64,000 nucleotides of DNA from IMG/VR virus record IMGVR_UViG_3300045988_112808. One strand, given 5' to 3'. Below are positions 8,971-60,381 of this stretch, piece after piece. Source of the DNA: a virus. Made by a program: the position numbers and the translations under genes. The first letter of the stretch is position 1; each line of letters starts with the position of its first letter. The notes below the pieces were generated by a model. That model did no database searches. It was not told where the DNA came from and worked only from the letters and a program-made list of their open reading frames with translations.

Positions 8971-9000
8971 AAGTGGGGCTTGTGAAAGTCTCACTTTTCT
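8971..9000 (+). terminator. rho-independent terminator candidate
   Basis: AAGTGGGGC (8971-8979) pairs with GTCTCACTT (8988-8996), including two G-U pairs. It is followed by TTCTT and lies 43 nt after stop 8928. Confidence 0.5.
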
Positions 9001-9068
9001 TATATATGCACGTATATCAATAACATACAAGAAAAGTTAGATTTTCATTGTTTATGAATTATTTTTGT

Positions 9069-9076
9069 TAAGTTTG
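9069..9076 (+). promoter_or_regulatory. candidate -7 promoter box TAagTTTG
   Basis: Matches TAnnTTTG in the intergenic region upstream of ORF 9151; the -33 element is weak. Confidence 0.3.
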
Positions 9077-9150
9077 CAATATTAGTTTCAGGAAGGGATT
9101 ATGGAAATAAGGAAAAAGTAAGAACCGAACGTAACTAATAACAGTAGGAA

Positions 9151-9348
9151 ATGAGAATCAGTACCATCAAACGTAACAACAGCATTCATCTTATGTATAA
9201 AAACATTATGAATGATTTAGGTCAATTAAGAACTGTAGTTTCAAAATCCTATATTTATAATCTGATACAAAATCAAACCGGATTAAGTATCAGAACTATA
9301 TCCCATGTCTTGAATCACACAAAAGAACAGGATACAGATTCTTTGTGA
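9151..9348 (+). CDS. small HTH-like protein (65 aa or shorter)
   Basis: The segment TGLSIRTISHVLNH resembles a helix-turn-helix recognition region. Followed by a hairpin terminator. The start is uncertain (internal Met at residues 15 and 20). Confidence 0.4.
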   Translation: MRISTIKRNNSIHLMYKNIMNDLGQLRTVVSKSYIYNLIQNQTGLSIRTISHVLNHTKEQDTDSL

Positions 9349-9431
9349 AAGGCATACATTTTCCTACATTTGTGTGTTCTTTAGTTTTTAGATTTAAGTT
9401 TTTCATGGTATTAGTTTAGATTAGTGTAGAT

Positions 9432-9466
9432 CAGGGCTCGCAGTGATGCGGGCCCTGGTTTGATTT
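9432..9466 (+). terminator. rho-independent terminator candidate
   Basis: CAGGGC-T-CGC ... GCG-G-GCCCTG stem (9432-9457) followed by GTTTGATTT. Confidence 0.55.
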
Positions 9467-9482
9467 AAAAAGTATTAAAATA

Positions 9483-9513
9483 TTTGCTATTTAAAATCCT
9501 GTTCCTATCTTTG
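9483..9513 (+). promoter_or_regulatory. Bacteroidota-type promoter (TTTG-N19-TAtcTTTG)
   Basis: TTTG at 9483-9486 and TATCTTTG at 9506-9513 with 19-nt spacing match the -33/-7 consensus. It would give a ~115-nt leader before ATG 9636. Confidence 0.55.
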
Positions 9514-9635
9514 CTCCAGAAACAATGAACAACGAGATCCCACCTCTGGTTGTTTGATGTTGAAAGATATTTTTGGCTCATTAGGGTTTGTCATAGTGGG
9601 ATCTGACATTCTCTTTTGGGCCTATTTTTTTTATC

Positions 9636-10202
9636 ATGGATAAAGTTTCTGTTTTTGAAAGTTCGGATTTTGGAGAGCTTAGAATTATTGTAGATCCAAA
9701 AGGAGATGTTTGGTTTGTGGCGTCAGATGTGGCTAAATCTCTTGGATATATAAATGCTAAAGATGCGGTAAAAAGACATGTAGATGATGATGATTCTATG
9801 CTTTTGCAAGTATCTGATAATCAATGGGGCGTAAAACGATCTATATTGAAAACCAGATATATAGATAGTATAAGAATAATTAATGAATCTGGTTTATATT
9901 CTCTTATATTATCTTCAAAATTAGAGTCTGCTAAGAGATTTAAGAAATGGGTAACATCTGAGGTTCTTCCTTCTATTCGTAAAACAGGAGAATATAAAAC
10001 AAGTTCCGGTGGAAAGGGAATTTTGGTCCCTGACTTTTCTAATCCGGCAGATGCAGCAAGAGCCTGGGCTGATCAATATGAAGCTGCTCAAAAAGCTATA
10101 GCCGAAAAGTCGCAGGCAGAGGCAGAAGCCGGCGTTCTGATGGGACGTACATGGGGTACGGTGGTGGTATTTACGACCATTACGGTATGCATGAGAAGAT
10201 GA
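9636..10202 (+). CDS. Bro-N domain protein (BRO/KilAC-type antirepressor family)
   Basis: N-terminal pattern FGELRIIV..G..WFVASDVAKSLGY....DAVKRHV ... INESGLYSLILSSKLESAKRFKKWVTSEVLPSIRKTGEY is the classic Bro-N signature. The last 17 codons overlap the next gene and look non-native. Confidence 0.85.
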   Translation: MDKVSVFESSDFGELRIIVDPKGDVWFVASDVAKSLGYINAKDAVKRHVDDDDSMLLQVSDNQWGVKRSILKTRYIDSIRIINESGLYSLILSSKLESAKRFKKWVTSEVLPSIRKTGEYKTSSGGKGILVPDFSNPADAARAWADQYEAAQKAIAEKSQAEAEAGVLMGRTWGTVVVFTTITVCMRR

Positions 10203-10795
10203 AGGAAATGGAAGAGCGAGAAAACGAGCTGGAAGAAAGGGAAAGAAGGCTCGAAGAGCGCGAACGTCGTCATGAAATGGAAGACCGGGAATACCGGAGG
10301 ATGGGTTACGAATCCTACCCGACCGATTACTATGGAGACGACAGATACTACGGTGACGGACCTCAGATGCGCAGAGGTCGCGGACGTGGCAGAGGTCGTT
10401 CTTATTGAGGAGCAGACGCAGAGGATCCAGCTTATCAGAAATATGTAGATACTTACGGCTACCATTTTTCTAATGCTCTCGCTGATGAGGCGGTAAAGAA
10501 GATGGTCAACGTCGATGGATCCAAGAGGATCTGGAAGCAGCCGGAAATAAAAGATATTTTTGAAAAGTGCGGAGCGAAGAAGCCGGATAAAGCGACATGG
10601 GGCGATGTCCAATATGTCTTTGCAATGTACTATTCGGATGGTTTTCCGAAGGTCTTCAAATGTGAGAACGAGTTGGTGAAAGCTACGTTAATGTATTTGG
10701 ATGATCCGGATGCTCCCGAAGGAGTAGCCTTTATAAGATGGCTTGCCGTGCAAGATTACCTCGGCGAAAAAATAAACTGGAAGGATCTGACCTGA
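10151..10795 (+). pseudogene. single gene split by an in-frame TGA (10406-10408): RG/Y/G-rich disordered N-terminal part plus a conserved-looking C-terminal domain
   Basis: ORFs 10151-10408 and 10502-10795 are in the same frame. The stretch 10409-10501 is open and encodes ...YHFSNALADEAVKKM, contiguous with MVNVDGSKRIW...FAMYYSDG. Only the one TGA interrupts the frame. Confidence 0.55.
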
Positions 10796-10898
10796 GATCC
10801 AGACCCAGGTCCTTCCGGTGGTGCGGGAGCCATAGTAAAAAATATGATTCCCGCATTCCCGTTTTTCCCGTTTGGAAAAAAAGAATAAAAATGTTATA

Positions 10899-10938
10899 CC
10901 GGTCGGCGGGCAATAGAATACCCGTGGCCGGTTTGTTT
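10899..10938 (+). terminator. weak terminator candidate
   Basis: CCGG..CGGG / CCCG..CCGG interrupted stem (10899-10931) followed by TTTGTTT. Confidence 0.3.
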
Positions 10939-10957
10939 CACATAACTTTTTTTTGAC

Positions 10958-11134
10958 ATGAATATAGCACACGAATCTAAATCGAATAAAACCCCATTGT
11001 ATTTAATAGGAGAGTTGATTGGCGTACCGAATACGGTTATGGACTCAGCATTGCATGAACTGAAAGATAGAATAGACAAAGACCCTAAATATAAAGATGT
11101 TAAAAATTGGCTCGAATCTTTACCCAAGATCTGA
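10958..11134 (+). CDS. small hypothetical protein (58 aa, below the ORF-track cutoff)
   Basis: ATG 10958 to TGA 11132-11134 (MNIAHESKSNKTPLYLIGEL...). A strong terminator follows 22 nt downstream. Confidence 0.4.
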   Translation: MNIAHESKSNKTPLYLIGELIGVPNTVMDSALHELKDRIDKDPKYKDVKNWLESLPKI

Positions 11135-11156
11135 ACCTATTTTTCCCAATACCAGG

Positions 11157-11190
11157 CCCGATGCGATTTTAACGTATCGGGTTTTTATTT
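11157..11190 (+). terminator. rho-independent terminator
   Basis: CCCGATGCG (11157-11165) / CGTATCGGG (11173-11181), 9 bp with one G-U pair, 7-nt loop, then TTTTTATTTT. Confidence 0.75.
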
Positions 11191-11236
11191 TAATTCATAT
11201 TGTTTTATTTTAAATCTAATTAATTCATAAATGTCG

Positions 11237-11244
11237 TACATTTG
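11237..11244 (+). promoter_or_regulatory. candidate -7 promoter box TAcaTTTG
   Basis: Matches TAnnTTTG 17 nt upstream of ATG 11262, directly after a terminator. Confidence 0.4.
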
Positions 11245-11261
11245 TTGAAAAAGTATTCTAT

Positions 11262-11489
11262 ATGGAAAATAAGGAAGATTACGTTGGTTACGAAGATCAA
11301 GAACTGTGTAACCGGTATTACAAAGAGGCCGAAGCCATGAGGCAAAAGCAGGACTGGTATCGGCTTAGGGCTGTCCCTGCTCCGGCCAAGGGAACGCCAT
11401 CGCCCGGCTGGGGTCAGCTTGGACGTGGAAATGAAGTTCGTGTCAAGTACGTTAGCATCAATTCAGGATTAGGAGGGGACAGATTATGA
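11262..11489 (+). CDS. hypothetical protein (75 aa)
   Basis: First ORF after the promoter box. Its stop overlaps the next start (ATGA at 11486). Contains a GC-rich patch at about 11330-11440. Confidence 0.6.
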   Translation: MENKEDYVGYEDQELCNRYYKEAEAMRQKQDWYRLRAVPAPAKGTPSPGWGQLGRGNEVRVKYVSINSGLGGDRL

Positions 11490-11701
11490 CCGTAGAAGAA
11501 TTGGCTAATAAAAGATACGGTGGCGAATTTGTTTTTATGCTTGGTCATTTGGAAGGTGTAACAAGATTCGTTTTTGAATGTTTCGATCCCAGACCTGATC
11601 ACGAAGGTAAAAATACTTATATGGTTTCCTATTTTGATAAGCGCATCCGTAGAAGAGATGTAGTAGATGTGCCATGTTATATGAGTGTTTTAGCAAAATA
11701 A
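11486..11701 (+). CDS. hypothetical protein (71 aa)
   Basis: ATGA-coupled to the upstream ORF; same-strand operon context. Confidence 0.6.
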   Translation: MTVEELANKRYGGEFVFMLGHLEGVTRFVFECFDPRPDHEGKNTYMVSYFDKRIRRRDVVDVPCYMSVLAK

Positions 11702-11721
11702 ATTAAAATATTGTAAATATC

Positions 11722-12243
11722 ATGGTTAGAATCGCATATTTCGGAACCGATGGCTGCCCCGGTCATCACGTTATTCCAATACGAGGTAAATTCACAGAAG
11801 AGGATATTAAGGTAATAGAATCTGTAGATTGTGATGATTTCTATAAGGTGTTTGACGTTATGCGTTTTAAGATAGCTGAGTTTAAAGGATGGACGATATT
11901 GGGAATCCCGGCAAGCTTAGACGATCATAGACCTGGGAGCAAAACCGTTATCTTCATAGAGGGTAAAGCTAACGAAGCTGATTTTATGGAAGTCATACAA
12001 GAGTATTCTTTTCTTAAAAATAAGGTAAAGAAACTTATCGAATTGTATCATGATGGAGAATGGCTTGCGACTGGTAAATTGAATCAAGATCCGCCTACTA
12101 ACAAGGAGCGGTTTCAATTTATGTTAGACAAGGATGATAAACTGGTGGTGGTTCCTGGAACGTGGCATGGTAGGTTCAAGAAAGAATGGCCTACTGAAGA
12201 AGAAAAGAAGCATATTGGTAAAAACGGTATTTTAAATTATTGA
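11722..12243 (+). CDS. hypothetical protein (173 aa)
   Basis: ORF-track ORF; tight same-strand packing (20-nt and 3-nt gaps). Confidence 0.7.
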   Translation: MVRIAYFGTDGCPGHHVIPIRGKFTEEDIKVIESVDCDDFYKVFDVMRFKIAEFKGWTILGIPASLDDHRPGSKTVIFIEGKANEADFMEVIQEYSFLKNKVKKLIELYHDGEWLATGKLNQDPPTNKERFQFMLDKDDKLVVVPGTWHGRFKKEWPTEEEKKHIGKNGILNY

Positions 12244-58797: not shown

Positions 58798-59143
58798 CTT
58801 TGTCTTGATTTAAACAATAGTTAATAAAATAAGCAACCTGTTCATTTTCCCCTGTATTATCAAAATCACCTAAAGTCATATCATCATAATCCAGCAGAAC
58901 CATACGAAAACCGTTTTTTTTGACATACACCTCCGTTAAAAACATAGGAATCCCAGCAATTTCTATTATCACCGGAAACTGATCATCAAAGTCAAACGCA
59001 TTATTATCTTCTCCCCATTTTTTAAATTTTAGCTTTATACTTCCACCGTTCTCCACTAATGCCTCTTTGATGTACTTTAATCTTTTTGCATTCAGATCAA
59101 TCTCTGCTTTTTCTATTTCTTTGTACAATTCATTCAGATCCAT
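58784..59143 (-). CDS. hypothetical protein (119 aa)
   Basis: ORF-track ORF; overlapping neighbours. Confidence 0.65.
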   Translation of the reverse strand: MDLNELYKEIEKAEIDLNAKRLKYIKEALVENGGSIKLKFKKWGEDNNAFDFDDQFPVIIEIAGIPMFLTEVYVKKNGFRMVLLDYDDMTLGDFDNTGENEQVAYFINYCLNQDKDGKE

Positions 59144-59645
59144 ATTCCACTATATTTATGTTGTCAAATTTTTCTTTTATAACATCCAAGGCTCCACACT
59201 CGTTTGTTATCATAGCATGCATCCCTGGCTTCATTCTCCACAGATTAAAATACCTTGTCACATTCATAGTGGCATTAAATAATGATATTTCATATCTTGT
59301 GTTTCCATTTTTATCACGCCCTATGTTTTTAATATAACATATGTCTGGCTTGTATTTGAAATAATTAAAAAGCCTATACCATCCCTTCCCGTTACATGTT
59401 TCACGATTCCATATTCCAGCAAGCTTCCTATATCCCCTTACTGGTATTTTCTTTATTTCTTTTGGTACGATCTTGACATACTTTCCTTCTCCGATTGGTA
59501 TGGTCATATTACCTGCCTCTTCAGTACAAAAGTATTCTATTTCAGATGCCATTCCTTTATACACATAGAACCGGTATAAGTTCCCGTCAGGGTCTACCCG
59601 ATCCATGTAATATAATATCACTTTGTCTACTTTTATCTTTTTCAT
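59130..59645 (-). CDS. hypothetical protein (171 aa)
   Basis: ORF-track ORF; ATGA overlap upstream. Confidence 0.65.
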   Translation of the reverse strand: MKKIKVDKVILYYMDRVDPDGNLYRFYVYKGMASEIEYFCTEEAGNMTIPIGEGKYVKIVPKEIKKIPVRGYRKLAGIWNRETCNGKGWYRLFNYFKYKPDICYIKNIGRDKNGNTRYEISLFNATMNVTRYFNLWRMKPGMHAMITNECGALDVIKEKFDNINIVEYGSE

Positions 59646-59893
59646 TCCTTTATTCTACTTATCTTTAAATTGTTATTCCCACAGTATTCCTTCAGCCAAC
59701 TATCCGTTAGATAACGATTAACTCTATCGTATTTCTTTTTCGGACCCTTGCTCCAGAATTTCCATTCGTTTGTGATATTGTACCCATATTTATCAAACCA
59801 ATAGATATAATACACTACGTTACCATATAAATCCACTCTTTTTCTTTCCTGTATGACTACCTCGTAAGGTATCTTCTTGTCTCTTTTCTCCAT
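59642..59893 (-). CDS. hypothetical protein (83 aa)
   Basis: AGGAGG 6 nt upstream of the ATG; first gene after terminator 59915-59949. Confidence 0.6.
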   Translation of the reverse strand: MEKRDKKIPYEVVIQERKRVDLYGNVVYYIYWFDKYGYNITNEWKFWSKGPKKKYDRVNRYLTDSWLKEYCGNNNLKISRIKE

Positions 59894-59914
59894 CTTTGTC
59901 CTCCTTTATTGAAT

Positions 59915-59949
59915 AAAAAAACGGCACCTATCTTCGCAGACCAGTGCCG
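59915..59949 (-). terminator. rho-independent terminator (minus strand)
   Basis: CGGCAC (59949-59944 on the minus strand) / GTGCCG stem with a 16-nt loop, followed by T7 on the minus strand (plus-strand A7 59915-59921). Lies 22 nt after stop 59971. Confidence 0.65.
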
Positions 59950-59970
59950 GCAACTAACTTACATGGAAAA

Positions 59971-60381
59971 CTACTTAACCTCAACTAATTCTACAGAGCC
60001 GTAGAATTTAGTGAAGCTACCAACAAATTCTCTTATATTTTTATATTCTTCTGGTCGTTTTCTGTTACCATCTTTTATATAATTCACCCACAGTCTATCC
60101 TCTATGTTCTTAATCGCATTCTCTATCGTAAATTCGTCGCTGACGCTCATTAAACACGAAGACCCGGTTTTCTTATGTGGTTTATATATCCTTGAAAAAG
60201 ACCACATTTTTATTCTATCATATATATATCCGTTGTTGGGATAAACGAATCCTATCCGGCTGTCACCTTCTTTAGCGTAAAACACACCTGGCTCCTTCCC
60301 GCCCTTTCTATATACTACAAATCCTTTTTCTTTTAGGATATTAACCACTTTATCTAATTTATTTTCTACGTTCATTTTCAT
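59971..60381 (-). CDS. hypothetical protein (136 aa)
   Basis: ORF-track ORF. Confidence 0.65.
   Translation of the reverse strand: MKMNVENKLDKVVNILKEKGFVVYRKGGKEPGVFYAKEGDSRIGFVYPNNGYIYDRIKMWSFSRIYKPHKKTGSSCLMSVSDEFTIENAIKNIEDRLWVNYIKDGNRKRPEEYKNIREFVGSFTKFYGSVELVEVK

Follow-up and report, generated by a model that had tools for sequence, protein, structure and literature searches.

Does a TGA codon inside a phage reading frame end one gene, or does it mark a point at which some ribosomes carry on? The question is raised by positions 10151–10795 of a viral DNA of 64,000 nucleotides (IMG/VR virus record IMGVR_UViG_3300045988_112808; "the window" below means this whole stretch). Here the open reading frame (ORF) 10151–10408, with the translation MGYGGGIYDHYGM...RGRGRGRGRSY, stops at TGA 10406–10408, after which the same frame stays open for 128 codons, up to TGA 10793–10795. 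A preliminary description, made from the sequence alone, had quoted the interrupted translation and its extent to 10795, and both proved exact. We conclude that the region is probably one gene of an epsilon crAss-like phage with an evolutionarily maintained leaky TGA, i.e. a site of stop-codon readthrough, and that this TGA most likely separates an N-terminal part that is disordered, coiled-coil, and RG-rich from a globular DUF7841 domain.

The closest GenBank relative of the window is phage csAssE-Sib (OR575929, 151 kb, human gut). Its genome was published under the name crAssE-Sib as that of an epsilon crAss-like phage, in a paper that discusses neither stop codons nor the phage's genetic code (PMC11054128). 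Our literature searches found no paper mentioning DUF7841 or this TGA site, and none under the GenBank spelling "csAssE-Sib".

The split frame and its DUF7841 domain

The segment after the TGA matches Pfam DUF7841 (PF25223) with 60.5 bits against a gathering cut-off of 25.2 (E 2.3e-16), profile positions 7–112 of 114 aligning to residues 97–212 of the concatenated translation. The domain starts within a few residues of the TGA and ∼27 profile positions ahead of Met 10502, whose ATG is the first in-frame ATG, GTG or TTG downstream of the stop; the earlier remark that a conserved block begins upstream of the only internal ATG is thereby borne out. Y12, H19, and D66 show no variation in a 63-sequence alignment led by the window sequence, and several other positions, among them G17, F20, L24, and N34, are nearly invariant. 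Membership in the family is therefore indicated both by a score above the cut-off and by the presence of the family-invariant positions.

AlphaFold models the domain as seven helices, with a predicted local distance difference test score (pLDDT) of 97 and a predicted template modelling score (pTM) of 0.91. Helices 1–3 and the family's most conserved motif, Y..HG.HF, precede Met 10502, and the structure matches of this model in BFVD are DUF7841 proteins from crAss-like phages. Relatives of the domain are carried by cultured Bacteroides fragilis and Parabacteroides distasonis phages and by many crAss-like phages, and we infer a Bacteroidales host. Of the homologues in phages and Firmicutes that the preliminary description had named, those in phages were found, among Bacteroidales phages and crAss-like phages, and no Firmicutes relatives were seen.

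The N-terminal part is modelled by AlphaFold as a single long helix with low-confidence segments on both sides, and in the full-length model the stop column lies precisely where a low-confidence RG-rich linker gives way to the domain's first helix. The RGRGRGRGR tail lies within a segment of pLDDT 45–57, as a disordered RG/RGG protein would have it; judged from its residues, the N-terminal part is like such proteins in composition only. Uninterrupted homologues exist, namely protein P0076, with TGG at the stop column, and distant DUF7841 proteins with low-complexity N-termini, and on this comparative ground the descent of the two ORFs from one ancestral gene is supported.

Conservation of the TGA and selection on either side

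We checked the TGA column at the DNA level in >300 loci fetched from IMG/VR, metagenomes and ENA/Logan, which represent six sub-lineages with a mutual protein identity of 50–86%. TGA occupies the column in 80 of 80 fetched IMG/VR loci of the csAssE-Sib type, in 80 of 80 of the P0028 type (protein identity only 53%), in all 79 informative metagenome loci, which include two further lineages at 70–73% identity, in 6/6 loci of the P0001 type, and also in the L329/L330 lineage. Nucleotide identity of the locus between lineages is 68–78%, and synonymous divergence (dS) is 0.6–1.0 or saturated. Throughout, the TGA stands 17 codons ahead of the GYHF motif and is the invariant element amid flanking codons that differ by lineage (TAT TGA GGA GCA, TCT TAT TGA GGA GAA, CGC TGA GGA GAA, CGT TGA ACA AAA, TAC TGA GGA GCA, and TAC TGA GGG GCG).

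Inspection of the residue that homologues carry at this column, a check proposed at the outset, returned TGA nearly throughout, with rare TGG and CGA. The CGA (Arg) allele was seen at locus L011, with the matching protein P0257 on 7 contigs, and TGG at locus L093, both nested in the P0028-type clade; TGG is also the codon of the outgroup lineage P0076/L012. Every sense allele seen is one mutation away from TGA. In a neighbour-joining tree the TGA lineages form one clade, which contains the two sense alleles and leaves outside it P0076 and P0123, both uninterrupted. A single TGG-to-TGA change at the base of the clade, followed by long retention and occasional reversion, would be the parsimonious history. 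When TGA in the conserved context was replaced by TGG, CGG, CGA or AGA, an IMG/VR scan gave 30 matches, none of them a family member, and a search with P0076 against IMG/VR gave no match.

By this comparative record, the TGA is real, ancient, and selectively retained. The preliminary description had entertained a fresh nonsense mutation or, as an assembly error, a sense codon at 10406; neither agrees with a TGA that is fixed in >300 independent contigs from six diverged sub-lineages.

Several protein entries that seem to tell otherwise were set aside. P0001 (86% identity) appears full-length with Trp at the column, but all six contigs encoding it have TGA, and it was rejected as a "W" homologue, the W being a code-4 gene call over a real TGA. 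The "W" entries at this column (L005–L010/P0001, P0271) are code-4 gene calls on short Logan/ENA contigs, and in P0271 even the terminal TGA is rendered as W. As stand-alone DUF7841 proteins, P0017 and P0125 were likewise rejected, each owing its start to a gene-caller GTG inside the frame, the former on a deletion variant and the latter on a TGA-bearing locus. A P0028-type copy of the gene with TGA also occurs on a 4-kb contig of a marine Vibrio olivae assembly (L332, NZ_JBHMEP010000030.1), most likely as contamination with gut-phage DNA.

Between two TGA-bearing lineages, the csAssE-Sib (Sib) type and the P0001 type, the ratio of non-synonymous to synonymous substitution rates (dN/dS) is 0.11 for the N-terminal part, 0.25, from few sites, for the 31 codons between the TGA and ATG 10502, and 0.07 after that ATG. 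Within the TGA-bearing populations, these 31 codons hold 22 synonymous and 3 non-synonymous polymorphisms in total (10 and 2 variable sites in the Sib type, 12 and 1 in the P0028 type), against a neutral expectation of ∼1 synonymous to 3.7 non-synonymous. Only synonymous variation is seen in the nine codons that follow the TGA, and five of the 16 most conserved positions of the family (Y12, G17, H19, F20, and L24) lie within the 31 codons. No frameshifts or additional stops occur downstream of the TGA in the compared loci. In the Sib type the 31-codon segment has no canonical in-frame start, and in the remaining types no such start is conserved. These patterns of variation, read across lineages, show the 31 codons after the TGA to be translated in frame without a start codon of their own.

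Readthrough and its alternatives

The locus has the comparative features by which readthrough genes are recognized: an in-frame stop between two coding segments of the same frame, the second of them without an independent start, conservation of that stop across diverged relatives, and purifying selection on the downstream ORF. Long retention of the TGA, together with protein-level selection on both halves, argues for a leaky stop rather than a fresh mutation or a sequencing error. Given the uninterrupted homologues and the lack of an intact domain from Met 10502, the earlier proposal of one gene read through a TGA is supported, and readthrough is the best explanation.

For most ribosomes translation would end at the TGA, and the product would be a short RG-rich, coiled-coil protein (∼125 amino acids in intact relatives). 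A minority would decode UGA by means of a near-cognate tRNA of the host, for which tRNA-Trp is the likeliest candidate, Trp being what uninterrupted relatives carry, and would thereby yield a fusion of ∼254 amino acids bearing DUF7841. A single start would then give a fixed, low ratio of long to short product, as in Qbeta coat/A1. Eight different mutations could have turned the stop into a sense codon, yet it was kept while divergence reached saturation, which argues for selection on termination itself; in that case the ratio of short to long product would matter. Candidate modulators, offered as leads only, are a host tRNA-Trp variant with a 4-bp anticodon stem and a phage tRNA-Cys(GCA).

Several points weigh against this interpretation. 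Readthrough as such, how efficient it would be, which amino acid would be inserted, and what both products would do are predictions from sequences. The few sites behind the dN/dS of the 31-codon segment, a neighbour-joining tree of the TGA lineages that carries no support values, and the missing native start of the gene copy in the window belong here as well. Folding of the RNA after the TGA was no better than that of shuffles (single sequence, z = +0.93), and the alignment showed no covarying structure there, its consensus being weak (−6.95 kcal/mol) and comprising a 6-bp GAGGAG:CUUUUC pairing of doubtful meaning; an Rfam scan of window positions 9000–12000 found no recoding element. No extended nucleotide context is conserved at the TGA, whose 3′ codon varies (GGA, GGG, ACA), so that no stimulator is identified beyond basal UGA leakiness, and the +4 base G of most lineages is not a classically weak stop context in Escherichia coli. 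Three further points speak for two separate genes: annotation pipelines call two coding sequences in csAssE-Sib (98663–99040 and 99134–99427), Met 10502 is invariant, and a short protein that has to end at the stop would give just as much reason to keep it.

With two genes, the TGA would be a plain terminator and DUF7841 would be made independently, from Met 10502 or by non-canonical initiation or reinitiation after the stop. We regard this as unlikely. Two separate genes in homologues, which had been named as grounds for abandoning the one-gene view, are found in the output of annotation pipelines only, and the pipelines call them because the stop is present, not because a second start exists. 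Met32, as the residue at 10502 is numbered in the domain, belongs to the M.N.DG motif in uninterrupted homologues also, so its conservation is uninformative on initiation, and according to the model an intact DUF7841 domain cannot be made from it because helices 1–3 and the Y..HG.HF motif would be lost. The 31 codons before Met32 are under protein-level selection and hold no in-frame ATG, GTG or TTG; the TTG and ATT triplets nearby are out of frame. Upstream of both the TGA and ATG 10502 the sequence is G/C-rich, unlike the A-rich context of the window's real starts, which lack Shine-Dalgarno motifs (7 of 64, against an 18% background) and are strongly enriched in A at −14 to −11, as is typical of Bacteroidota-type initiation. 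Context and motif together thus speak against the natural start at Met 10502 that had been considered beforehand. An SD-like (Shine-Dalgarno-like) GAGGAG overlapping the stop was also rejected as a reinitiation signal, because window genes do not use such motifs and no in-frame start follows. A decaying pseudogene, in which an inactivating nonsense mutation hitch-hikes, or its variant, an assembly error, is highly improbable: the locus is indeed a deletion hotspot with many rearranged variants, and the window copy has lost its 5′ end, but the stop is common to six diverged sub-lineages and >300 contigs from many samples, and downstream dN/dS is 0.07–0.25 without frameshifts or extra stops. The relaxed downstream constraint and sporadic stop expected of a pseudogene are contradicted by the population and selection data.

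Reassignment or dedicated suppression would make the TGA a Trp codon (code 4-like), read by a phage or host suppressor tRNA or by a readthrough-prone tRNA-Trp, and seems to us somewhat less likely still than two genes. It would be an incipient or residual case of the TGA-to-Trp recoding known in beta, delta, and zeta crAss-like phages (PMC7886860), and it agrees with Trp at the column in uninterrupted relatives, with the raised UGA readthrough by tRNA-Trp(CCA) having a 4-bp anticodon stem (PMC13092985), and with the presence in the closest complete genome of a tRNA-Cys(GCA), near-cognate to UGA. TGA nevertheless terminates 32 of the 82 likely genes in the window (39%), including a structural gene of 2033 amino acids, and efficient suppression would lengthen a third of the phage's proteins. 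The window's ORFs of 2033, 2137, and 751 amino acids are uninterrupted, and 10151–10408/10409–10795 is its only TGA-split pair without a start in the second part; other TGA-, TAG- or TAA-split candidates in the window are ordinary same-frame neighbours with their own ATG. A tRNA search found none in the window, and one of csAssE-Sib positions 1–150,000 (the last 1.3 kb lying outside the scan) gave six (Cys-GCA, Arg-CCU, Gln-UUG, Met, Tyr, and Lys), with neither a UCA anticodon nor a tRNA-Trp among them; the phage suppressor tRNA that had been suggested is thus found in neither. With TGA still a terminator, no multiple in-frame TGAs, and no UCA tRNA, the marks of stop-codon reassignment are missing, and this gene content excludes, for the window, genome-wide recoding of TGA to Trp, likewise an earlier suggestion. 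Other recoding at the TGA, whether insertion of selenocysteine (Sec), an in-frame "stop hop" or bypassing, is as improbable as a pseudogene. UGA is the Sec codon, but the sense alleles are Trp or Arg and never Cys, and neither a hairpin resembling a Sec insertion sequence (SECIS), nor another conserved hairpin, nor an Rfam match was found, so that the hairpin and the Cys homologues that characterize bacterial selenoproteins are both absent. Some lineages do have a Tyr codon before the stop and another Tyr codon 9 codons downstream, as hopping might use, yet the codon before the stop (TAT, TAC, CGT, CGC) never equals the one after it (GGA, GGG, ACA), the nine codons to be skipped show synonymous-only variation, and the Tyr landing codon is missing in L329.

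Two observations concern leakiness of UGA more generally. Because tRNA-Cys is near-cognate to UGA, the tRNA-Cys(GCA) of csAssE-Sib (L002 6666–6738, − strand) is a conceivable contributor to readthrough; it has an apparent C instead of the usual U at position 33. A backup in-frame stop within 3 codons follows 12 of the 32 TGA-ended ORFs and 8 of the 37 TAA-ended ones, a non-significant excess that would be a hint of selection if UGA is generally leaky in the host.

For RNA viruses and Qbeta, programmed stop-codon readthrough is textbook knowledge, but it is barely documented in bacteria and double-stranded DNA (dsDNA) phages; the Shine-Dalgarno-independent translation of Bacteroidota is itself poorly studied. 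Readthrough recoding as such is known, and what would be new is its occurrence in a dsDNA crAss-like phage with Bacteroidota-type translation. To our knowledge, and as far as a non-exhaustive check goes, programmed stop-codon readthrough would here be described for the first time both for a dsDNA phage and for translation in Bacteroidota. Comparative data alone yield a clean candidate, an in-frame UGA that stays constant while its surroundings diverge, and with it a directly testable recoding site for Bacteroidota. More tentatively, we propose that epsilon crAss-like phages, which are abundant in the human gut, may use a dedicated, selectively maintained UGA readthrough site to set or modulate the ratio between a short RG-rich, coiled-coil protein and a long form with DUF7841. 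If this is true, the ratio of long to short form could report the translational state of the host (RF2 activity, tRNA-Trp variant or abundance), or it could be shifted by the phage's own near-cognate tRNA-Cys(GCA). On the practical side, annotation pipelines split the gene into two "hypothetical proteins", and code-4 calls on short contigs put Trp into protein databases (P0001, P0271); both errors mislead checks of such sites by protein BLAST alone.

Genomic setting and known systems

Table 1. Coordinates of the features discussed, in window positions
Feature	Position	Strand	Remarks
Chimeric Bro-N antirepressor ORF	9636..10202	+	Pfam Bro-N E 6.4e-27; csAssE-Sib alignment
Deletion junction, 13-nt microhomology (GGCAGAGGCAGA-)	10114..10126	+	Common to antirepressor gene and RG gene
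N-terminal part, 5′-truncated	10151..10405	+	Gly/Tyr stretch, ER-rich helix, Tyr/Asp/Gly stretch, RGRGRGRGR tail
In-frame TGA, candidate readthrough site at linker/domain boundary	10406..10408	+	Conserved across lineages
Start-less 31 codons	10409..10501	+	DUF7841 helices 1–3 including Y..HG.HF; purifying selection
DUF7841 all-alpha domain, 128 codons and terminal TGA	10409..10795	+	Pfam, AlphaFold, BFVD
Internal ATG, Met32 of the domain	10502..10504	+	M.N.DG motif residue; not a dedicated start

In intact relatives, e.g. csAssE-Sib, the gene starts 37 codons upstream of ATG 10151 (MIVYDLNSGHREYPGYDEIEDRRGGGRGRSRRSDGTYM..., MIVYDLNSG...). Alignment with csAssE-Sib shows 2.64 kb to be deleted in the window, which took away three genes besides the antirepressor's C-terminal half and the beginning of the RG gene (Table 1). 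Since the deletion took the native start and the first 37 codons, ATG 10151 is, by this alignment, an internal methionine of the ancestral protein, and expression of the window's copy is uncertain. The start that the preliminary description gave for ORF 10151–10408 is accordingly not native and is here corrected, from the same alignment, to the csAssE-Sib-type start. The deletion also cuts off the Bro-N ORF after its linker, from where it runs out of frame into the RG gene. An identical junction is present in 8 IMG/VR contigs of 82–143 kb, so the deletion is a real haplotype or sub-lineage and not a misassembly.

The deletion hotspot extends from the Bro-N antirepressor to DUF7841: dozens of variants, most of them known from one contig each, have different junctions at which DUF7841 or the RG part is joined to another gene, the partners including Bro-N, a Gly-rich membrane protein, a KilAC/ANT protein and a TnpB-like ORF. 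The junctions frequently lie within GC-rich GGN/CGN/GAR repeats. Genes of the TnpB / IS605 OrfB type adjoin the locus in relatives (L093 1910–3052, L094 7384–8616, and L329 1–234), are found elsewhere in csAssE-Sib (58986–60125 and 64190–65413), and may contribute to local rearrangements.

The window itself is a phage segment of low GC (∼36–40%), its + strand carrying very large structural ORFs and its − strand a long block of genes. Local GC rises to 0.50–0.54 at 10000–10900 and 11300–11500, compared with 0.29–0.36 on either side; the former rise coincides with the Arg/Gly/Glu-rich coding sequence and the latter falls in ORF 11262–11489. Upstream of the Bro-N gene, an intergenic sub-threshold Rfam match to the Bacteroidetes small RNA family FopS was seen at 9396–9469 (+), with 32.2 bits against a gathering score of 56 (E 0.032).

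A sizeable part of the human gut virome consists of crAss-like phages (PMC7886860). Gut phages including them are known to use suppressor tRNAs in reassigning TGA to Trp or TAG to Gln (PMC7886860, PMC9523058), the TGA-to-Trp recoding of crAss-like phages sometimes occurring without a detectable phage suppressor (PMC7886860). The present locus shares with those cases the phage order, the TGA/Trp pair, and a gene that gene callers split. There, however, many genes, most of them late, are affected by reassignment, suppressor tRNAs accompany it, and the codon no longer serves as a terminator, whereas here one site in one gene is concerned, TGA is a common terminator, and no suppressor was found. 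On the host side, one Bacteroides species has the tRNA-Trp variant with a 4-bp anticodon stem alongside the normal form (PMC13092985).

By its C-terminal 128 residues the sequence clearly belongs with the DUF7841 proteins found in crAss-like, Bacteroides, and Parabacteroides phages. In the other members the ORF is uninterrupted, 130–230 amino acids long, and typically provided with a short, low-complexity charged N-terminal extension; a long RG/coiled-coil N-terminal part cut from DUF7841 by a TGA is confined to this epsilon crAss clade. Fixed-ratio recoding in dsDNA phages is established for frameshifting, in the tail assembly chaperone G/GT and in T7 gene 10A/10B (PMC5009743). The likeness lies in nested products with a common N-terminus, one start, a set ratio, and recoding conserved across relatives, but frameshifting moves ribosomes by −1 or +1 on slippery sites into another frame, while here the frame is kept and there is no slippery site.

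The closest analogue is Qbeta coat/A1, with its single start, in-frame UGA, shared N-terminus, and likely insertion of Trp; readthrough to A1 uses Trp and occurs at ∼1 in 15 (PMC8067240). An abundant short and a rare C-terminally extended product would be common to both systems, the A1 product being demonstrated and those of the present gene predicted, and leakiness of the Qbeta type needs no elaborate stimulatory structure. Qbeta, by contrast, is a single-stranded RNA coliphage in which A1 is a minor capsid protein, whereas the phage considered here is a ∼150-kb dsDNA crAss-like phage of probable Bacteroidales hosts, in which the gene is accessory and the extension is the all-alpha DUF7841 domain.

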